DNA of 22,004 nucleotides, from positions 1 through 22,004 of the forward strand of contig CAZJVE010000017.1 in the NCBI GenBank assembly GCA_964549685.1, read 5' to 3'. The position numbers were made by a program, and so were the translations under genes. Source of the stretch: an uncultured archaeon. Its GTDB lineage: Archaea > Altiarchaeota > Altiarchaeia > IMC4 > QMZM01. Below the pieces are notes generated by a model. That model was not told the DNA's origin, did not search any database, and was given only the letters and a program-made list of their open reading frames with translations. Of the stretch, positions 3,383 to 18,699 are shown in pieces. Numbering within the stretch: position 1 is the first letter of the stretch; every line of letters starts with the position of its first letter.

Positions 3383-3872
3383 GGCGCTGCTCTTTCTGAA
3401 GGAACTATGTGCTGGGGACATAGTCAATCACTCATTGTCTGTTTCTAAAAAGGCGAGGGAAATTGCCGACAAAATTAAAGCAAACGGACACGACATAGAC
3501 CCTGATTTTGTCGAGACCGGTGCAATTCTTCACGACATCGGACGTTCCAGGAGCCATGGCATAGACCACGGAATCAAAGGCTCTGAAATCCTGAGGAATT
3601 CTGAATTCTCAGAATTTGCAAGAATATGTGAAGTCCATCTGGGTGCTGGAATAGACAAGGAAGAGGCAGCATCTGTCGGCCTTCCTGAAAAAGACTACAT
3701 CCCAGAAACACTGGAGGAGAAGGTAATTGCGCATGCCGACAATCTTACTGCCGATAAAGGATATGTCCCCATCTCGGAAACAATCAAAAAGATGGAGAAA
3801 AAACTAGGCAAAGAGCATCCCGCCATCGGGCTGGTAAAGGAACTGAACGACTTCATCAACTCCCTCTTATAA
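3342..3872 (+). CDS. HD(IG)-domain protein (TIGR00295-like); start codon uncertain
   Basis: GAILHDIGRS, HGIDHG, CEVHLGAGI, PETLEEKVIAHADNL; this family commonly lies next to tfe. No in-frame ATG near the N-terminus, TTG at 3342. Confidence 0.85.
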   Translation: MQKSTEFSRRRKNKALLFLKELCAGDIVNHSLSVSKKAREIADKIKANGHDIDPDFVETGAILHDIGRSRSHGIDHGIKGSEILRNSEFSEFARICEVHLGAGIDKEEAASVGLPEKDYIPETLEEKVIAHADNLTADKGYVPISETIKKMEKKLGKEHPAIGLVKELNDFINSLL

Positions 3873-5055
3873 TCTCTGCGCAGTCCTTCAGCAACAAATA
3901 GACGGCGCAGTACTCCGGGACCTTAACTCTGCCGGAGAAGGGTCCAAATTTGTTCTCATTAAAATCAAATTTCGGAACCTTCTTATTCAATTCAATTTCT
4001 ACTTCATCATCAGAAAAAGAAATAGAATCAACCAAGGGGTTGAACTTATCAATATTGTCAACAATGCTTGCCTCAAGCCCAGTACCTCCATGAAGGCTGT
4101 CGGGCAGCCGCATAATCCTTGCGGTATCTATTGTGACCATCTTGTCCGTGTCCTCGGCAGCAAGGGTCTTTATGGCACTCTCCCTTATTATTGCGTCCAT
4201 GAGCGGAGATGATACCTTCTTTATAACTGGCCTTGTTATATTCGGCGTACTGGTCTTGACCGAGGAGGTATCCACCGTGACAATCTCGGGAATTCTGCTG
4301 TATATGCCCTTCTCCACCTCTCTGAGAATTCTGTCCCTGTTGCCATGAATCTCCTTGGCCTTCTTCTCACCTATGCCCTTGATGGCCTCCATTTCCCTGA
4401 TGCCAGAATCCCTGATGAAATTATAAAGGCCGGTATATATCCTCCCCGCCCACCCGGAGTCTCCGTCCTTTGGACCCATGAGGACAGGGATTCCGTCCTT
4501 GTCCTCCTCCACCCTGAGATAATCCACAAAGTTTATACTGCCACTCACATAGTCAACAATCTCTCTCCTTTCCTCTCTGCCAAGACCCCTGATTCCCTCA
4601 TTTCTTATTCTCAGATGGTAGCCCTTGCTACCAGAAAAATTTATTTCCACATCCTTCTTTGAAAATCCGAAATCATTTTCGAGGAACTCCACCAGATTCA
4701 GTGTCTCTCTCTTCACCTCATCCATCTTTTCAGAGCTGAGGAATTCCATCGGCATGTCGAGGTCAAACACCAAATCCGCCCCTAACCAGTTCTTGCTACT
4801 CATCGGCTGGTTGCCGGGGAATTCATAGTATGCCGCGGAATAGGAGATGTAGAACGGTGCATCCCTCTTCAGGAAGTTCCCCAGCTCGGTGGAATTCTTA
4901 AAGGCCCTGTGCCTTGCCTTTATCTTCGTCTCCAGCGTGCCGAATCCAAATTCCCTCATCTCAATATCTGGAGGCGCTGGCGCCTGGTTCTTCCAGTAGT
5001 AATCCTTGAACCTCTTGCTGAGGAAGATTTTGGTTTCGGTGTTCATTATTAGCAT
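3856..5055 (-). CDS. priS: DNA primase catalytic (small) subunit PriS
   Basis: REFGF, YSAAYY, WLGADLVFDLD (DxD), FSGSKGYH, D(KMV)TIDTARIMRLPDSLHGGTGL; HhH-like insertion IKGIGEKKA. Start at 5055 or 5046. Confidence 0.95.
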   Translation of the reverse strand: MLIMNTETKIFLSKRFKDYYWKNQAPAPPDIEMREFGFGTLETKIKARHRAFKNSTELGNFLKRDAPFYISYSAAYYEFPGNQPMSSKNWLGADLVFDLDMPMEFLSSEKMDEVKRETLNLVEFLENDFGFSKKDVEINFSGSKGYHLRIRNEGIRGLGREERREIVDYVSGSINFVDYLRVEEDKDGIPVLMGPKDGDSGWAGRIYTGLYNFIRDSGIREMEAIKGIGEKKAKEIHGNRDRILREVEKGIYSRIPEIVTVDTSSVKTSTPNITRPVIKKVSSPLMDAIIRESAIKTLAAEDTDKMVTIDTARIMRLPDSLHGGTGLEASIVDNIDKFNPLVDSISFSDDEVEIELNKKVPKFDFNENKFGPFSGRVKVPEYCAVYLLLKDCAEIIRGS

Positions 5056-7699: not shown

Positions 7700-8455
7700 A
7701 TGGAGCTAAAGGTAGTAATCTCGGACCCTGAGACGGGTAAGGCATATCAGCAGGAGCTGAAGGACGATAGGGCCATCAGGTTCAAGGGCAAGAAGCTGGG
7801 CGATGAGATAAGCGGTTCGGTTCTCGGCCTGGAGGGCTACACCCTTAAGATAACTGGAGGCAGCGATAGAAGCGGCTTTCCGATAAAGCCGGGCGTCCAT
7901 GGAACCGCAAGGCCGAAGATTCTCATGACCGAAGGGATAGGTTACCATCCCAAGAGAAAGGTCCGCAGCAAGAAGCGAGTGAGGGGGGAGAACATAGACG
8001 AGGACATAACTCAGGTTAATACAAAGGTCATCAAGAAGGGCAGGAAGGATATATCGGAGTTACTTGGCGCTGCTGGAGAAGAAGGCGAAGCAGCAGAAGC
8101 AGGGGCGGAGAAGCCACCTGAGGCCAAGTCAGCCGAGGAGAAACCAGTAGATGAACCCAAGGCCGAAGAGAAGCCAGCCGAGGAAGCAAAGCCCGAGGAG
8201 AAACCTGCTGAGGAGCCAAAGACTGAAGAAAAGCCAGCTCCGGAACCCGAGGCCAAGCCAGCCGAGGAAAAGCCGGCCGAAGAACCAAAGGTAGAAGAAC
8301 CCAAGGCCGAGGAGAAACCTGCCGAAGAACCAAAACCAGAGGAAAAACCAGCCGAATCCAAGCCAGAGGAGGCAAAACCTGAAGAGAAACCAGCCGAGGT
8401 AGATGAAAAACCAGCAGAAGAAGCTGAGAAACCAGTAGGAGAAAAGAAGGCCTAG
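7700..8455 (+). CDS. rps6e: 30S ribosomal protein S6e with long E/K/P/A-rich C-terminal extension
   Basis: KVVISDPETGK, LKITGGSDRSGFP, KKRVRGENI..DITQVNTKV; about 128 aa repeat tail. Confidence 0.95.
   Translation: MELKVVISDPETGKAYQQELKDDRAIRFKGKKLGDEISGSVLGLEGYTLKITGGSDRSGFPIKPGVHGTARPKILMTEGIGYHPKRKVRSKKRVRGENIDEDITQVNTKVIKKGRKDISELLGAAGEEGEAAEAGAEKPPEAKSAEEKPVDEPKAEEKPAEEAKPEEKPAEEPKTEEKPAPEPEAKPAEEKPAEEPKVEEPKAEEKPAEEPKPEEKPAESKPEEAKPEEKPAEVDEKPAEEAEKPVGEKKA
8077..8452 (+). repeat. Coding tandem repeats ([10 protein letters not shown]) in the S6e tail
   Basis: Roughly ten degenerate EEKPAEE(A/P)K units. Confidence 0.9.
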
Positions 8456-8496: not shown

Positions 8497-8543
8497 AAAA
8501 TTCGCAGGGCGAATTTTGATTTATTGAAAATTCATTTTCAATA
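8497..8543. promoter_or_regulatory. Two tandem perfect inverted repeats upstream of eIF2gamma
   Basis: AAAATTCGC-AGG-GCGAATTTT (8497-8517) and TATTGAAAAT-TC-ATTTTCAATA (8522-8543, includes the A of the ATG). Confidence 0.55.
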
Positions 8544-9769
8544 TGACTCAGTCAGAAATCAATATCGGTCTTATTGGCCACGTAGACCACGGCAAAACAA
8601 CATTAACAAAGTCCCTATCAGGCATATGGACCGACAAGCACTCGGAGGAAATCAAGAGGGGAATATCCATCAGACTGGGATATGCGGACTGTTCCTTCTA
8701 CAAATGCCCCTCCTGCAAGGGGTCGGAGTGCTACTGCACCTCCGAGAAATGCCCCAAGTGCGGTGCAAAGGCCGAATTTCTCAGAAGAGTTTCTTTTGTT
8801 GACTCCCCTGGCCACGAAACCCTGATGGCCACAATGCTCTCTGGGGCAGCAATAATGGATGGCGCCCTTCTTGTTATAGCAGCAAACGAGTCGTGCCCGC
8901 AGCCGCAGACAGCAGAGCATCTCATGGCACTTGAGATATTGGGAGTAAAGAATATCGTCATTGCACAGAACAAAATCGACCTGGTTTCAAAGGAGGAGGC
9001 GTTGGAGAATGACAACCAGATTAAGGAATTCATCAAGGGTACAGTAGCTGAGAATTCACTCATCATCCCGATTGCTGCCCATTACAATGCAAACATCGAT
9101 GCCCTGATTCAGGCAATAGAGGAGAAGATTCCAACGCCGGAGAGGGACCCAAAGAAGGACTCCAGGATGATGATTGCCCGCTCCTTCGACATAAACAAGC
9201 CCGGAACAAAGCCGGACGGGATAAAGGGAGGAATCATAGGCGGCTCGCTAGTCCAGGGTAAACTGAAGGTGGGCGATGAGATTGAACTCTCTCCAGGAGT
9301 GAAAAAGAAGAACGTCTACAGGCCGATTAAAACGGAGATAGTCAGCCTGAGTGCTGGGGGTTCGGAGCTGAAGGATGCAAACCCCGGCGGTTTGATAGCC
9401 ATAGGAACGAAACTCGACCCCTCCCTTACAAAATCAGACAACCTCTCAGGAAACGTAATCGGCAAGCCAGGAACCCTGCCTGAAGCAAGGAGCAAGCTTA
9501 CTCTCAAGGTCAATCTCCTGAAAAGGCTGATAGGTAGCAAGGAGGAGATAAATATAGTGCCCCTGCAGAAGAACGAGGCACTGATGCTGTCCGCCGGGAG
9601 TGCGGTGACAGTGGGCATAGTCACGGACCCGAAGAAGGGCAGGATGGAACTCAAACTTCCAGTATGTGTGGAGGAGAACGACCTTGTGGCCATAAGCAGG
9701 AGGTTCGGTGCAAGGTGGCGCCTAATTGGCTATGGAACAATCAAGGGAGATGAAAACACTAATTCTTGA
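8543..9769 (+). CDS. eif2g: Translation initiation factor 2 subunit gamma
   Basis: [19 protein letters not shown], Zn-knuckle [37 protein letters not shown]. Confidence 0.98.
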
Positions 9770-10139
9770 CACTAATTTTTTGATGATTCCCCACCAGCAG
9801 AGGGTCGATATCTTCAGAGAGATTGAGAGAATTATCGTCGCCAGATACGATTTACTTGTTCCTACCGGAGTTATAGAGGAATTGCAGGGAATTCAGGAGG
9901 AGGGTGGTTCAGATGCAATAGCGGCAAAGGTTGCGCTGCAGTTCATCGAGGACAGGGACAGGCACATCCATAAGATACACAGCCATGGTGATGTAGATGA
10001 ATTCATACTCGACTTCGCATCGAATAATCCTGGCTCAGTCGTATGCACCAATGACAAGGAGCTCAAGAGAAGACTGAGAAAATCCAGAGTCCCTGTGGTG
10101 CATCTGAGGGGCAAAAACAGGCTGGAACTGATAAATTAG
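9750..10139 (+). CDS. PIN-domain nuclease (Fcf1/Utp24-like)
   Basis: [31 protein letters not shown]; conserved position after eif2g. ATG at 9750 follows a GGAG SD-like motif. Confidence 0.9.
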
Positions 10140-10192
10140 CTAATTTAAATTGATTGAAGGTAATAATTAATCTCACTTCTATGCATGATAAA

Positions 10193-12211
10193 ATGGATCT
10201 TACGGTTTTACCTTTGATTTCGGGAATATGTGCATTGATATTTGTTGCGTTCCTCGCGAAGAGGGTTATGAAGCAGAGCCCCGGCTCTGAGAAGATGAGA
10301 GATATCTCGGATGCAATCCATGAGGGTGCGATGGCATTCCTTAAGAGAGAGTACTCTGCAATACTGGTATTTGCCGTCATAATGACGGCAGTTCTGGCGA
10401 CGTTTATAGGTATCCCAACTGCAATAGCCTACGTTGCGGGAGCCATATGCTCCTCGGCTGCAGGATTCGTCGGCATGAATATCGCAACCAAGGCTAATGT
10501 AAGGACTGCAGAGGCTGCAAAGAAGAGCATCAACAAAGCCTTGAGAGTCGCATTCTCCGGTGGGGGGGTAATGGGCCTCTCCGTTGTCGGCCTTGGCCTG
10601 CTTGGAATATACTTCTCATACTCGATACTTCAGGATGCAATCATGCAGGACAACCGAATGATTAACGTAATAACCGGCTTCGGCTTCGGAGCAAGCTCGA
10701 TAGCACTCTTTGCAAGGGTCGGCGGTGGCATATTCACTAAAGGCGCTGATGTCGGTGCCGATTTAGTCGGAAAGGTGGAGGTAGGAATCCCAGAAGACGA
10801 CCCCAGAAATCCAGCAGTCATTGCAGATAATGTTGGCGATAATGTTGGAGATGTTGCCGGAATGGGCGCGGACCTGTTTGAGAGCTATGTGAACTCGGTA
10901 ATCGCTGCGATGGTCATAGGACTGACAATAACTTCATACGGAGTCAATGGCGTCGTATTCCCAATGGCCCTTGCGGGAGCCGGAATTCTCGCATCCATTG
11001 CCGGGACGTTCTTCGTCTCGACCAAGGAGGATGCAACCGCATCACAGCTCCTATCGGCTCTGAGAAAGGGCGTATTCTCAGCAGGAACCCTCATCATCAT
11101 CGCGGCCTACTTCCTGGTGCAACAAACAGTTGGCGACATGAACGTCTTCTATTCTGCTGTAACGGGCCTTGTTGTTGGAGTCCTTATAGGACTCATAACC
11201 GAATACTACACATCAAGCCATTACAATCCAACCAAGAACGTTGCTGCTTCTTCACAGACAGGAGCAGGCACAAACATTATAAGCGGCCTCTCCATTGGAA
11301 TGAAAAGCACGGCGATACCTATAATCCTTATTGCCATAGCAATCGTTGTAACATTCAAACTCTCCGGTGTCTATGGGATTGCCATAGCAGCGGTCGGAAT
11401 GCTCTCAACACTCGGTATAACTATGTCAACAGATGCATATGGTCCAATAGCCGATAATGCGGGGGGCATAACGGAAATGGCGGGCCTCGGAAAGGATGTA
11501 AGGAAGAGGACCGACGCTCTTGATGCACTGGGCAATACAACGGCAGCAACAGGAAAGGGATTCGCGATAGCATCAGCAGCATTAACAGCATTGGCTTTAA
11601 TGGCGGCATACACTGCGGCAACAAACGTCGATGTGATAAACATAACGAAGCCGGGAGTGATAGCCGGAGTATTTATCGGCGGAATGCTGCCCTTCGTCTT
11701 TTCCTCATTCACAATGGATGCTGTTGGCAGAGCCGCCTTTGAAGTAGTCAATGAAGTCAGGAGACAGTTCAAGGAGATAACGGGCCTGATGGACGGGAAG
11801 GCCAAGGCAGATTATGCCAGATGCGTTGACATAAGCACAAAGACGGCAATCAGGGAGATGATAGTTCCTGGAACGATTGCAGTAATAACTCCCATAACCA
11901 TTGGCCTTCTACTTGGTGCCGAGGCACTTGGTGGGCTTCTTGCAGGCTCCATAGTGACGGGCTTTTTAATGGCCGTAATGATGGCGAATTCCGGGGCGGC
12001 ATGGGACAACGCAAAGAAGTACATAGAGGAAGGAAACATGGGAGGCAAGGGTTCCAATGCTCATAAGGCAGCGGTCATTGGAGACACGGTTGGAGACCCA
12101 TTCAAGGATACCTCCGGACCGTCATTAAACATCCTCATAAAGCTGATGTCCGTAGTCTCATTGGTATTTGCGCCGCTATTCGTAACTTACGGAGGTATGC
12201 TGGCTTTATAA
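10193..12211 (+). CDS. hppa: Membrane-integral K+-dependent pyrophosphatase (probably Na+-translocating)
   Basis: [65 protein letters not shown] (Ala marks K+ dependence), [15 protein letters not shown]; many TMs. Start likely 10193. Confidence 0.97.
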
Positions 12212-12237
12212 GAATCTAATCTATATCAAAAAAGAAA

Positions 12238-12843
12238 ATGTATAAACTACTCACTGTAGAGGACACGGTAAGACTCCCGCCTAAGAGATTTAACGAAGAC
12301 CTGGAGGAAGCACTCATGACGGAATTCGAGAACACCATGGTGGGCAGAATAGACCGGGAGATTGGTCTCGTTCTTGCGGCAACCCAGGTTATTGAGGTGG
12401 GGGACAGCAAGATAATAATGGGTGACGGGGCCATCTACTACAACACGGTTCTTGAAATTATAGTGTACGAACCCGTATTGAACGAGGTCGTTGAAGGAAC
12501 AGTAACCGAGATTACGGAATTCGGAGCCTTCGTGAACTTCGGTCCAATGGACGGTCTTGTCCATGTTTCTCAAGTTACAGAGGACTTCATGGGCTACGAC
12601 CAGAAGAATTCAAACCTTGTGGGCAAGGAGTCGAAGAAGGTCCTCAAGCTGAGTGATTATGTAAGGGCTAGGATAGTTTCGGTAAGCCTGAAGCCAAGGT
12701 TCTCAGACTCCAAGATAGGCCTTACGATGAGACAGCCATACCTCGGGAAGAAGGAGTGGCTCGAGGATGCGAAGAAGGCACAGAAGGAAAAGGAGAAAAA
12801 GAAGACAAAGGCAAAGAAAGAGAAAAAGGAGAAGAAGAAATAA
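12238..12843 (+). CDS. rpoE1: DNA-directed RNA polymerase subunit E' (Rpo7)
   Basis: MYKLLTVEDTVRLPP, GDGAIYY, S1 domain EFGAFVNFGPMDGLVHVSQV, IGLTMRQPYLGK. Confidence 0.97.
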   Translation: MYKLLTVEDTVRLPPKRFNEDLEEALMTEFENTMVGRIDREIGLVLAATQVIEVGDSKIIMGDGAIYYNTVLEIIVYEPVLNEVVEGTVTEITEFGAFVNFGPMDGLVHVSQVTEDFMGYDQKNSNLVGKESKKVLKLSDYVRARIVSVSLKPRFSDSKIGLTMRQPYLGKKEWLEDAKKAQKEKEKKKTKAKKEKKEKKK

Positions 12844-12844
12844 A

Positions 12845-13024
12845 ATGATTCGATCATGCAAGCAGTGTCACAGACTGAGCGAAGAGGAAGCATGCCCCGT
12901 TTGCAAGGGCCCAACATCACAATACTGGAGCGGTTACATGGCAATCGTTGACCCTGAGAAGTCAGAGATAGCGAAGATAATGGAAATAAAGACGCCAGGG
13001 GAGTATGCCCTGAAAGTACGGTAA
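12845..13024 (+). CDS. spt4: Transcription elongation factor Spt4 (RpoE'')
   Basis: CKQCH..CPVC, WSGY..IVDPEKSEIAK, PGEYALKVR; ATG at 12845. Confidence 0.95.
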   Translation: MIRSCKQCHRLSEEEACPVCKGPTSQYWSGYMAIVDPEKSEIAKIMEIKTPGEYALKVR

Positions 13025-13029
13025 GTCAA

Positions 13030-13542
13030 ATGAGGAACAAAACCCTAAAGCTTCCCAAGTCGCTGAGGGAAGGGCTAAAGGAACCGTTTGGAGAACTATT
13101 GGCCGGCCTGGAGGAGTTAAGGCATAACAAGAACATAATATGTGTCGGCGACGAAACATCAAAATTATCGCTGGAATTCGGACTCAAACCAAAGGTTTTG
13201 GTCTATGATGGTAGGATAAAGAGGGAATCTGTCCCGATTCCGGCCATAATAAGAAACTTCAAAGCGACTGAGGTAAGGGTCAAGAATCCGGCAGGTTACA
13301 TAACCCGGGAATCCTTTGAGGCGATATACGCAGGACTGACGGGCTTCGGGAGGGTCAAGATACGGGTTGATGGGGAGGAGGACCTGCTGACCATTGCTGC
13401 AATAGACCTCGCACCAGCGGGCTCGGTAGTACTCTATGGTCAGCCACACGAGGGTCTGGTAGTTGTGAAGGTCAACGAAGAAAGCAAAAAGAGAGCAAGA
13501 AAGGTACTTGAGCAGATGGATATAGAAGAAAATGAACATTGA
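13030..13542 (+). CDS. GTP-dependent dephospho-CoA kinase (DUF359)
   Basis: LREGLKEPFG, CVGD, YDGRIKR, NPAGYIT, VDGEEDLL, YGQPHEG; conserved position between spt4 and rps24e. Confidence 0.9.
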   Translation: MRNKTLKLPKSLREGLKEPFGELLAGLEELRHNKNIICVGDETSKLSLEFGLKPKVLVYDGRIKRESVPIPAIIRNFKATEVRVKNPAGYITRESFEAIYAGLTGFGRVKIRVDGEEDLLTIAAIDLAPAGSVVLYGQPHEGLVVVKVNEESKKRARKVLEQMDIEENEH

Positions 13543-14056
13543 AATTCTTGAAGAGAAGGAGAATCCCCTCCTTGGGAGGAAGGAGGTTAGGTTCAGGATT
13601 GATTATAAAGGGAAGACCCCTAGCTTTGTGGAGGTAAGGAATGAGTTGATAAAGAAGGTAAATGCTGACAACAACCTTACGGTTATAGATTCGGTTAATT
13701 CCGACTTTGGGACTCAGAGCGCATTTGCCTACGCGAAGATTTACAGGGACGAGAAGAGCATGATGGTAGAACCTGGCTACAGGATAGAGAAGAACATCAG
13801 GGGCAAGAAGAAAAAGGAAAAGAAACCTGAGGCGGAGAAGCCGGTAGCAGAAGCCAAGCCAGCAGAAGAGAAAGCTGAGAAGCCAGCTGAGGGAGCAAAG
13901 CCTGAGGAACCGAAGCAGGAAGAGAAACCAGCCGAGGAAAAGCCAAAGGAAGAACCCAAAGAAAAACCAGCGGAAGAACCCAAGCCCGAAGAATCCAAAG
14001 AGGAAGCAAAACCAGCCGAGGTAGAGGAAACCAAGGAGGAGAAGAAGGATGGCTAA
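13532..14056 (+). CDS. rps24e: 30S ribosomal protein S24e with E/K/P/A-rich C-terminal extension
   Basis: [35 protein letters not shown]; about 80 aa repeat tail. Confidence 0.95.
13819..14053 (+). repeat. Coding tandem repeats (EEKPAEE) in the S24e tail
   Basis: Degenerate EKPAEE units. Confidence 0.85.
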
Positions 14057-14243
14057 GAGAAATGTAAAGGAGAAGAAGAAATCCCCCAGCAGCAAGAAGT
14101 GGGAGAAGTACGATACCTCTGGAGAGAAGGTAGATAGGAAGAACAAGAGCTGCCCCAAGTGCGGTGATGGTGTCTTCATGGCAAGGCATCATGACAGGGA
14201 CACCTGTGGCAAATGCAGCTATACTGAATTCAGGAAAAAGTGA
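14049..14243 (+). CDS. rps27ae: 30S ribosomal protein S27ae
   Basis: [27 protein letters not shown]. Confidence 0.97.
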
Positions 14244-17386: not shown

Positions 17387-18061
17387 ATGAATAAATTAAG
17401 CCAGCTCCTGCCGGGCGAGACAATATCTGTAGCCGTGAGAGTGCTGGACGAACCGGAAGAGAACAAGATTAATGGCAGGAAGAAATTAAGAGCGATGATT
17501 GGTGATGGTGACAATATAGCCAACCTTGTTGCATGGGACCGGGAAGCTGATAGACTGAACGTAGCAAAGGATGAAATTCTTGAGATAGTGGATGGGGAAT
17601 GCCCTGCCTTACACAAGGATACCCGACACCCGCCCACTCTGCTAGTCACAAAAAAAACTAACGTAACTAAGAAAAAGGTAAAATTCCCTTCAATCCAGGA
17701 ATGCATACAAGGGAAATTCCTGGACCAGGTTTCTGAGTACAGCTATGGCATAGCTACTGGCTTCATAAACCAGGTCTATCAAACCGCATCCTATTTCTGC
17801 GAGAGGTGCAAGAAATTTTCTGACGAGATGTGCAACTGCGGAAACTTCCCCAAGCCCATATTCCGGATAAGGGGGTTCTTCTCCGACGGAACCAAGACGC
17901 TTTTATTCTCAACAACCTCCGAAAGAGTGGCCGAGAAGCTCACCAAGGCGAGCAGGAGGGAGGCAAAAAAAATCAAACCCAAGGCGATTATGGACCGGCC
18001 CTACACACTTCTGGGCTATCTGAGGAACGAAAAATTCTGGGTGGAGGACGTAATAGAATGA
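17387..18061 (+). CDS. OB-fold plus Zn-ribbon protein, RPA1-like ssDNA-binding subunit
   Basis: First OB (IGDGDNIANLVAWD); second OB interrupted by CERC-x8-CNCG and followed by FSDGTKTL, as in the RPA1 C-terminal domain. Confidence 0.7.
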   Translation: MNKLSQLLPGETISVAVRVLDEPEENKINGRKKLRAMIGDGDNIANLVAWDREADRLNVAKDEILEIVDGECPALHKDTRHPPTLLVTKKTNVTKKKVKFPSIQECIQGKFLDQVSEYSYGIATGFINQVYQTASYFCERCKKFSDEMCNCGNFPKPIFRIRGFFSDGTKTLLFSTTSERVAEKLTKASRREAKKIKPKAIMDRPYTLLGYLRNEKFWVEDVIE

Positions 18062-18699
18062 ACGCACTGTTCCTCAAGATAAATGATCTGAAGGACTCAA
18101 AGTACAGGAGGGAAGGGAACAGGAATCTTCTGGAGACAGAGTTCGGGATAGGGGATACGGTAGCGCTCTGCGGCAGGCTGGAGAACATAAAGTATACTCA
18201 ATACGGCCCGAGGCTCTGGATTAACGACGGCAGCTCTCTGGGCGTGACGGTGGGAACATTCAGCAAGAACGTAAGGAAAGACGCCGAGGAGATTTTAAAG
18301 GAGTTCAAGGTCGGAGAAGAGAAATACATCCTGCTCTACGGAAGTCCATATGAAACGGACCAGCTCTACATCAACGTGAACCATGATAACGGAGTAATAG
18401 TTGTCAGCAAGAAGAACTACGAAAGGTTCCATCAGATGGGAATGGAGAGCAGAAGGTATCTCAGGGAAAAATTCGGCCTTCCTGTCGAGGATGAAACAAC
18501 AAGGGAGAAGTTGACTGCAATATCGAATTCGGATATTCTGGACATAATAAAAGGAAAGGACAAGGGCAAGGGAGTCAAGATTGAAGAGATACTGAGCCTC
18601 TTCGAAGACCGGGAGTTCATAGGGGACAAGCTCTTCGAGTTGATGGAGTCTGGAGCACTGTATGAACCAAAGCCCGGAATCTTTAAGGTAATCGCCTGA
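18058..18699 (+). CDS. RPA2/RPA32-like protein (OB-fold plus C-terminal winged helix)
   Basis: ATG 18058 coupled to the upstream stop (ATGA); OB features (VALCGRL, LWINDGS); C-terminal ILDII..GVKIEEIL..LMESGALYEPKPG typical of the RPA2 winged helix. Confidence 0.75.
   Translation: MNALFLKINDLKDSKYRREGNRNLLETEFGIGDTVALCGRLENIKYTQYGPRLWINDGSSLGVTVGTFSKNVRKDAEEILKEFKVGEEKYILLYGSPYETDQLYINVNHDNGVIVVSKKNYERFHQMGMESRRYLREKFGLPVEDETTREKLTAISNSDILDIIKGKDKGKGVKIEEILSLFEDREFIGDKLFELMESGALYEPKPGIFKVIA

Follow-up and report, generated by a model that had tools for sequence, protein, structure and literature searches.

A membrane pyrophosphatase gene in a recurrent pyrophosphatase slot upstream of rpoE1 in an uncultured altiarchaeote

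The hppA locus

The stretch of DNA analysed here, 22,004 nucleotides of contig CAZJVE010000017.1 from an uncultured archaeon of the Altiarchaeota (the window), carries a gene for a membrane-integral pyrophosphatase (PPase), hppA, immediately upstream of rpoE1, the gene for RNA polymerase subunit E' (Rpo7). The position is not peculiar to this genome but belongs to a slot met with repeatedly. Our reading of the locus, to which we assign a probability of roughly 0.75, is that the sole PPase of the organism, a K+-dependent membrane enzyme (M-PPase), occupies a recurrent slot, heading the rpoE1 block, in which PPases have been exchanged in place.

Gene identities in the window were assigned by a Pfam scan of the long open reading frames (ORFs) of the + strand, and the features are collected in Table 1. 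The order is rps6e-eif2g-PIN-hppA-rpoE1-spt4-DPCK-rps24e-rps27ae, all on the + strand, with spacers of 53 base pairs (bp) between PIN and hppA and 26 bp between hppA and rpoE1. Pfam and sequence coordinates here agree with the preliminary description of the window. The start of the PIN gene overlaps the 3' end of eif2g and its stop is the TAG at 10137-10139; hppA begins with the ATG at 10193 and ends with the TAA at 12209-12211, and the ATG of rpoE1 is at 12238. An in-frame ATG further upstream, at 10181, reads ATA in a congener (G002) and, because it is not conserved, 10193 is the likely start of hppA. The G+C content of hppA (0.498, and 0.513 at third codon positions) was not distinct from that of its neighbours; composition is uninformative on horizontal transfer.

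Table 1. Features of the rps6e to rps27ae region of the window
Feature	Coordinates	Strand	Evidence
rps6e (ribosomal protein S6e, 251 amino acids)	7700-8455	+	Pfam PF01092, 133 bits; domain residues 4-122
eif2g (translation initiation factor 2 gamma)	8543-9769	+	Pfam GTP_EFTU, eIF2_C and GTP_EFTU_D2
PIN_9 / Utp24-Fcf1-like PIN gene	9732 or 9750 (ATG) to 10139	+	Pfam PF18477, 105.8 bits
A/T-rich conserved spacer element TAATTTAAATT ... TAATAATTAATCTCA, putative promoter (B recognition element (BRE)/TATA)	10141-10176	+	conservation in relatives
hppA, membrane-integral pyrophosphatase, 672 amino acids	10193-12211	+	Pfam PF03030, 932.6 bits
TTTATAA, possible weak internal TATA box (speculative)	12205-12211	+	sequence; overlaps hppA stop
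rpoE1 (RNA polymerase subunit E'/Rpo7)	12238-12843	+	Pfam SHS2_Rpb7-N and S1
spt4 / rpoE2	12845-13024	+	Pfam PF06093; ATG at 12845
DUF359, archaeal GTP-dependent dephospho-CoA kinase (DPCK) family	13030-13542	+	Pfam PF04019
rps24e (S24e, 174 amino acids)	13532-14056	+	Pfam PF01282; domain residues 4-95
rps27ae	14049-14243	+	Pfam PF01599

Published papers are cited by their PubMed Central numbers. A cluster of S6e, eIF2g, Utp24 (PIN), rpoE1, rpoE2, S24e and S27ae has already been reported for Asgard and other archaea (PMC10833476), and the window has the same block in the same gene order. It differs in the slot: in the reported cluster the PIN gene adjoins rpoE1, and an inorganic PPase there is not mentioned in the available text. 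The DUF359 family has been characterised as TK1697, a GTP-dependent dephospho-CoA kinase (PMC6650551). Two other features of the window may be recorded: the S6e, S24e and Rpo7 proteins have long Lys/Glu-rich C-terminal tails, and the stretch 17387-18699 holds a pair of overlapping + strand ORFs, of 224 and 289 amino acids, without a Pfam match.

For comparison, the source genome (G000; 27 contigs, 1.17 Mb, completeness 85%) and 40 relatives were assembled into a panel of 41 genomes. The family of the source genome, f1, accounts for 22 of these (G000-G021), and its genus is denoted g1.

The predicted enzyme and the pyrophosphatase complement

As a gene, hppA is unremarkable, belonging to a family that has been studied in depth. 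Its product matches the Pfam H_PPase profile (PF03030, cut-off 29.7 bits) over positions 1-645 of 645, and NCBIfam NF001960 with 1001.5 bits (cut-off 546). Among the solved structures it scored 619 bits with the Vigna radiata H+-PPase (VrPPase, 4A01/6AFS), 548 with the Thermotoga maritima Na+-PPase (TmPPase, 4AV3) and 508 with a K+-insensitive H+-PPase. All the catalytic motifs sought were present, DxYGP, DNAGG, WDNAKK, GDTVGDP and KDTSGPS among them, and they align with those of VrPPase. A crude Kyte-Doolittle scan gave 20 hydrophobic peaks, partly overlapping (the family expectation is about 16 transmembrane helices).

M-PPase subfamilies were told apart by motif positions and not by NCBIfam models, of which the 13 for M-PPases are all titled 'sodium-translocating pyrophosphatase' and are matched by K+-dependent and K+-independent proteins alike. 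K+-dependent M-PPases carry Ala where K+-independent H+-PPases carry Lys, and this Ala together with a Glu at the position of TmPPase E246 sets the Na+-transporting enzymes apart from the K+-dependent H+-PPases (PMC9408878). The 672-residue HppA has the Ala (GNTTAA, from residue 447), whereas its type B relatives described below have Lys (GNTTKAVTKG). At the gate, DLFESYVNS (DLFES from residue 227) aligns with DLFGSYAES of VrPPase, with the Glu four residues, ie one helix turn, earlier. Both suggestions of the preliminary description, that GNTTAA indicates K+ dependence and that ADLFESY is consistent with a Na+-PPase, stand up to this rule. HppA is predicted to be a K+-dependent enzyme with a Na+-type gate Glu and, since that Glu falls at the Na+-PPase position, the cation pumped is most likely Na+, possibly with H+.

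HppA resembles TmPPase in being a full-length member of the H_PPase family with Ala in the GNTT[A/K]A signature, and is unlike it in scoring higher with the plant H+-PPase. The likeness at the gate was placed through the Vigna alignment, and transport is predicted from the sequence. That HppA is instead an H+ pump, a Na+/H+ co-transporter or mainly a PPi (inorganic pyrophosphate) synthase working in reverse is a possibility that we regard as doubtful. Typical Na+-PPases move H+ as well at low Na+, Na+,H+-PPases exist, and certain organisms may use such enzymes chiefly to make PPi; the same source which delineates the Na+ transporters by Ala and Glu also has the gate-Glu position common to Na+-PPases, Na+,H+-PPases and K+-independent H+ pumps (PMC9408878). 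Further evidence on the side of Na+ comes from the ATP synthase, as g1 carries double-hairpin (V-type) c subunits, the type found in archaeal and bacterial A1AO ATP synthases (PMC9171764).

That the genome might lack a soluble PPase had also been raised in the preliminary description, and in the 85%-complete assembly this was borne out: the profile search gave no match to PF00719 (family I), none to PF02833 (DHHA2, family II) and one to PF03030. HppA is probably the only PPase of the cell. Over the panel as a whole, hppA is present in 28/41 genomes. Family I matches were found in 14 genomes (13/13 of family f7 and 1/2 of f3) and in none of the 21 f1 relatives; only 4 of the 14 are full-length, the others stopping at about position 90 of the 153 in the profile. 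Ten genomes gave a DHHA2 match, namely 9 of the 21 f1 relatives and the one genome of f6. Within the 22 genomes of f1, 12 had hppA only, 9 had the family II gene ppaC (DHH-DHHA2) only, and none had both or had family I; the relatives' genomes are incomplete, which bears on these counts, and in the remaining one (G017, 77% complete) neither hppA, ppaC nor rpoE1 was found. Of seven genomes of other lineages with hppA beside rpoE1, six are without a PF00719 match.

Two side observations concern f7. Most of its genomes have, alongside hppA, an ORF of about 135-150 amino acids with a partial PF00719 match (L038:1495-1902; loci L034-L047), possibly a Ppa-like protein that has been shortened or put to another use. 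The f7 genome G034 has a full-length family I ppa together with a 776-residue H_PPase paralogue of the K+-independent type (G034:C25:8294-10432, L028), which is 39% identical to the HppA of the window and sits on a very long branch.

Occupants of the slot in relatives and in other archaea

Slots in f1 were located by tblastn with the window proteins against the corresponding loci of the relatives. The arrangement PIN-hppA-rpoE1 was found in 11/22 genomes, with hppA of three kinds. In G000, G001, G002 and G004 the gene is of type A, 80-92% identical to that of the window. In G003, G007, G009, G011, G013, G014 and G019 it is only about 52% identical, where eif2g and rpoE1 are 65-76% identical. 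Six of these seven (all but G009) are the K+-independent type B with GNTTKAVTKG, and are predicted to be H+ pumps by the rule of PMC9408878; the seventh, in G009, has GNTTAA and is a divergent K+-dependent form (A2). In G010, hppA comes after PIN but on the other strand, and a separate contig carries rpoE1.

Eight of the nine f1 genomes with ppaC have it directly upstream of rpoE1, two of the eight as fragments at contig ends (G012, G018). In G005, G006, G008, G015, G020 and G021 the roughly 1-kb interval from PIN to rpoE1 holds an ORF of 309 amino acids, with the Pfam domains DHH and DHHA2 and a score of 380 bits (cut-off 283) for NCBIfam NF003877, 'manganese-dependent inorganic pyrophosphatase'. 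The ninth genome, G016, has an empty slot and ppaC elsewhere, on a 3-kb contig; there (G016:C137:1-3028, L234) its neighbours are a FeoB C-terminal fragment on one side and, on the other, a gene of the iron/manganese-dependent repressor family. The occupants seen in the f1 slot are therefore hppA of type A, B or A2, or ppaC, with a scar in one genome. The slot families PF03030, PF01368 with PF02833, and PF00719 are unrelated, and their common activity is taken from family annotation.

The history of the slot was followed with a tree of the flanking genes rpoE1, spt4, DPCK and rps24e (490 columns, 20 f1 genomes). As these genes were taken from the same contigs, binning errors are immaterial to it. 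At least eight changes of slot state are needed on this tree, the minimum for six states being five. Three sister pairs differ in their slots: G004 (type A) and G013 (type B), with a Shimodaira-Hasegawa-like approximate likelihood ratio test (SH-aLRT) support of 99; G003 (type B) and G012 (ppaC), with 94; and G009 (hppA) and G016 (empty), with 96. The flanking DNA of the last pair is 79-83% identical, and the G016 spacer retains 31 nucleotides with 90% identity to the region upstream of the G009 hppA, and some 10 nucleotides of the hppA 3' end. On this evidence the slot of G016 is a scar, left when some 2 kb with hppA were cleanly deleted. The DNA homology of G003 and G012 (83%) starts at the start of rpoE1. 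The spacer upstream of the slot gene changes with the type of hppA, being TAATTTAAATT...TTAATCTCA for type A and ATAATTTATTAAATAAAAAC for type B, and ppaC begins 1-14 nucleotides past the PIN stop. Replacement in place among analogous PPases is well supported, and strongly so inside f1, where the repeated switches and complementary distribution amount to several such replacements.

In a tree of hppA, one K+-dependent clade and two K+-independent clades were resolved, the first of the latter comprising f1 type B and Syntrophoarchaeum and the second marked by GRGADLFEST. The hppA genes adjoining rpoE1 are spread over three separate M-PPase clades. The groups of the K+-dependent clade follow taxonomy approximately (f1 type A, f9, f3, and f7 with f5), and the K+-dependent gene seems to have come down by vertical descent and to have been linked to rpoE1 for long. 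Horizontal transfer of hppA had been a point to check by phylogeny. This roughly taxonomic tree, together with the adjacency of hppA and rpoE1 in other phyla and in three families of this one, means that hppA may be old at this place.

Regions upstream of rpoE1 were searched with Pfam in a phylum sample of 30 genomes of at least 85% completeness. Family I ppa was not in the slot of any of the 45 other genomes examined in the phylum. In f5 the order is thermosome-hppA-rpoE1. Both genomes of f9 have hppA near rpoE1 without PIN or eif2g upstream, and in one (G044) an FKBP gene intervenes; f8 has KsgA-rpoE1. In the f6 genome G026, on a closed contig of 1.39 Mb (L235:3016-4409), a PIN-domain gene (general PIN profile) stands just before ppaC, far from rpoE1. 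The PPase may there have remained with the PIN side after the block broke.

The archaea-wide scan was anchored on Rpo7, with one genome per prokaryote species, and returned 80 loci. Twelve were bacterial S1-domain matches and 68 archaeal, 65 of these with upstream DNA, for which Pfam was run on the two nearest upstream ORFs. In 10 of the 65, hppA is the nearest gene upstream of rpoE1, and in one it is second-nearest. The 11 comprise two Hadarchaeota (one PIN-hppA-rpoE1, one inverted), one Undinarchaeote (PIN-hppA-rpoE1), Syntrophoarchaeum, two Methanomassiliicoccales, four Thermoplasmata and one unclassified archaeon. Five loci have family I ppa, as the nearest gene in four (three Methanobacteriaceae with PIN-ppa-rpoE1 and one Thermococcus) and effectively so in the fifth, an Aenigmatarchaeote. 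Larger samples of single groups gave ppa in 29/31 Thermococcales genomes, 30-60 bp upstream of rpoE1 in 29/29; rpoE1 in 29/31 Methanobacteriales genomes, with PIN-ppa-rpoE1 in 26/29 and PIN-rpoE1 in 3/29; and, in a sample of the class Thermoplasmata, hppA within 1.5 kb upstream of rpoE1 in 14/30, co-oriented in 12. The preliminary description had placed ppa directly upstream of rpoE1 in Methanothermobacter and Thermococcales, correctly as the counts for Methanobacteriales and Thermococcales show; the slot pattern, in f1 and in other phyla, is wider than it proposed.

Some loci of the scan merit separate mention. In an unclassified archaeal metagenome-assembled genome (MAG) a NUDIX hydrolase, of another pyrophosphohydrolase family, lies in the slot between PIN and rpoE1 (L104:4082-4948). 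The slot hppA of a Methanomassiliicoccaceae MAG (L122:2743-4876) is read as two overlapping ORFs, covering profile positions 1-417 and 419-645, the cause being a frameshift, decay to a pseudogene or faulty assembly. L106 and L131 show the archaeal eif2g-PIN-rpoE1 block under bacterial MAG names (Anaerolineales; Candidatus Deferrimicrobium) and are probably mis-binned archaeal contigs.

The window thus resembles the eif2g-PIN-ppa-rpoE1 locus of Methanobacteriales and the ppa-rpoE1 locus of Thermococcales in its flanking genes, in the position of the slot and in the downstream order rpoE1-spt4-DPCK-S24e-S27ae. It differs in the enzyme, theirs being a soluble family I PPase of about 175-180 amino acids that is unrelated in sequence and fold and conserves no energy. 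In-situ non-orthologous gene displacement is a general concept of comparative genomics. The f1 slot conforms to it, with unrelated enzymes of the same activity between orthologous neighbours, mutually exclusive within f1 genomes, and departs from the usual case in that no fewer than five sorts of PPase occupy the position (family I and family II enzymes and members of three M-PPase clades, taking all lineages together). Switches at the slot also alter whether, and by which ion, PPi energy is conserved. Non-orthologous displacement in place, as proposed in the preliminary description, is right as a phenomenon, unrelated PPases (hppA A, B and A2, and ppaC) having swapped in one f1 slot; the specific ppa to hppA history in this lineage is unsupported, family I being absent from the slot in the 45 phylum genomes.

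No account of a PPase-rpoE1 linkage was found in the literature searched, which did not extend to older subscription papers on archaeal gene order, and none is mentioned in the available text of PMC10833476, PMC2643942, PMC4390880 or PMC11210485. The recurring PPase slot appears to be undescribed so far.

Weighing the alternatives, and the meaning of the slot

Several observations weigh against the reading given at the outset, beginning with those that concern the slot itself. The source genome is 85% complete, and unassembled DNA may hold a soluble PPase; the trees were quick searches with SH-aLRT support only; and the flanking DNA of G004 and G013 is about 70% identical, so that their switch is not recent. 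In 21/65 archaeal loci the slot lacks a PPase gene and PIN is the gene that immediately precedes rpoE1. As both f3 genomes and most of f7 have PIN next to rpoE1 and hppA elsewhere, the linkage of PPase and rpoE1 is dispensable. Such empty slots, with those of the three Methanobacteriales, are what one might expect if a PPase had come to stand beside rpoE1 in an early archaeon by accident and been kept by inertia, others having inserted independently into a permissive gap. The other genes met there point the same way (NUDIX at L104, a CmpB-like gene at L148, FKBP in G044), as do the nucleotide-metabolism passengers of the extended cluster, eg ndk and dUTPase (PMC10833476). We nevertheless find historical accident improbable. 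PPases of three non-homologous families, and M-PPases of three clades, are found repeatedly at one position; the PPase keeps to rpoE1 where the PIN/eif2g side has been lost (f5, f9, Thermococcales, Thermoplasmata); and the f1 occupant is always the sole PPase found in its genome, replaced and not lost. Because a PPase gene, whatever its family, immediately precedes rpoE1 in 20/22 genomes of f1 and does so repeatedly in other archaeal lineages, its position there is more than chance. A specific contact between PPase and Rpo7 is made less likely by the presence in the slot of three PPases of unrelated structure.

The remaining points against the reading concern transcription. Just past the PIN stop, at 10142-10151, lies AATTTAAATT, which the preliminary description had marked as a possible internal promoter. 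The type A spacer element that includes it is nearly invariant in G000, G001, G002 and G004, from the two genera g1 and g3, whose PIN proteins are just 49% identical. Such conservation is as expected for a promoter, and the element is the putative promoter and transcript start of hppA and, probably, of the genes downstream. A second sequence, TTTATAA at 12205-12211, is 27-33 nucleotides upstream of the rpoE1 ATG, is kept only within g1, and could serve as a promoter of rpoE1's own. It is thus conceivable that the spacer TATA drives hppA alone and that rpoE1 is read from TTTATAA at the hppA stop. We judge this arrangement unlikely, if less so than accident. In G004 the hppA-rpoE1 spacer is 12 nucleotides and there is no TATA-like sequence nearby; the ppaC-type loci and that of G009 have a Shine-Dalgarno-like GGTGA or AAGGAG ahead of rpoE1, as for an internal cistron; G016 kept the former hppA upstream region before rpoE1 when hppA was deleted; and neither spacer (53 or 26 bp) contains a run of five or more T.

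Comparison with Thermococcus kodakarensis bears on the same question. Its TK1699 and TK1698 are presumably rpoE1 and rpoE2. In the transcription start site table (PMC4247193, supplement file 8, which gives sizes and positions only), a primary start is placed 33 nucleotides upstream of TK1700, with a secondary start further up, and TK1699 and TK1698 have no rows in this file; TK1700 is named inorganic pyrophosphatase in PMC4473059. The lack of an entry for TK1699 argues against independent transcription. In its favour, the DPCK gene of this cluster contains a promoter (PMC6650551), so that there is one internal start or more and the T. kodakarensis block is not a single transcription unit. In the window, hppA and rpoE1 probably share a transcript.

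The proposed course of events at the locus is as follows. HppA would hydrolyse the PPi from RNA, DNA and aminoacyl-tRNA synthesis and would pump the cation out of the cell. Its gene directly precedes rpoE1 and so heads the rpoE1-spt4-DPCK-S24e-S27ae block, and the TATA-like element in the PIN-hppA spacer would probably start a transcript that runs through hppA into rpoE1. A shared transcript would tie the output of PPase to expression of the transcription and translation machinery. The output of PPi should scale with RNA and protein synthesis, and a PPase made from the rpoE1 operon promoter would track that demand, which is the most economical rationale we can offer. Non-homologous but functionally equivalent PPases fill the slot across archaea: enzymes of family I and of family II, and of three or more M-PPase subfamilies.

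The ATP synthase provides a further lead. Double-hairpin (V-type) c subunits are found in g1, in G010 (which has a type A hppA), in f3 and in most of f7, and single-hairpin c subunits in genomes with type B hppA or ppaC. Among genomes with K+-dependent hppA, 15 have V-type c and two (G004, G009) single-hairpin c only; among those without, 16 have single-hairpin and three V-type c. These counts (loci L237-L266) leave out three genomes in which no c subunit was detected. In the source genome two genes for V-type c subunits lie some 3 kb from each other, outside the window (G000:C6:126-533 and 3666-4073), and its c subunit may carry Na+ ligands. On independent contrasts the link between c subunit and hppA type was not significant, about three of six pairs being informative, all in the same direction, with a median p of 0.25. 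A bacterial A1AO ATP synthase with V-type c has been called Na+-dependent, and V-type c in the A1AO ATP synthases of anaerobes is discussed in the same paper (PMC9171764). It may tentatively be suggested, at rather less than even odds, that the slot is an ancient dedicated PPase position heading the archaeal rpoE1-spt4 operon, at which a promoter-plus-gene cassette for any enzyme that hydrolyses PPi can be swapped in, with the type of PPase matched to the coupling ion of the ATP synthase. The co-occurrence of K+-dependent hppA with V-type c subunits is in keeping with this suggestion. If that were true, swaps among Na+-pumping, H+-pumping and non-conserving PPases would retune the bioenergetics of the cell.

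Removal of PPi is essential, and its energy is either wasted by a soluble PPase or saved as a Na+ or H+ gradient by a membrane PPase. In the archaea considered here this bioenergetic choice has been remade repeatedly at one chromosomal address, beside the gene for an RNA polymerase subunit, both in close relatives and across phyla. The slot is in effect a natural experiment on the selection for each type of PPase. It also suggests a hypothesis open to test, namely that the rpoE1 operon promoter couples expression of PPase to that of the machinery for transcription and translation, and it provides a rule for annotation: a gene upstream of an archaeal rpoE1 is likely to be the housekeeping PPase.

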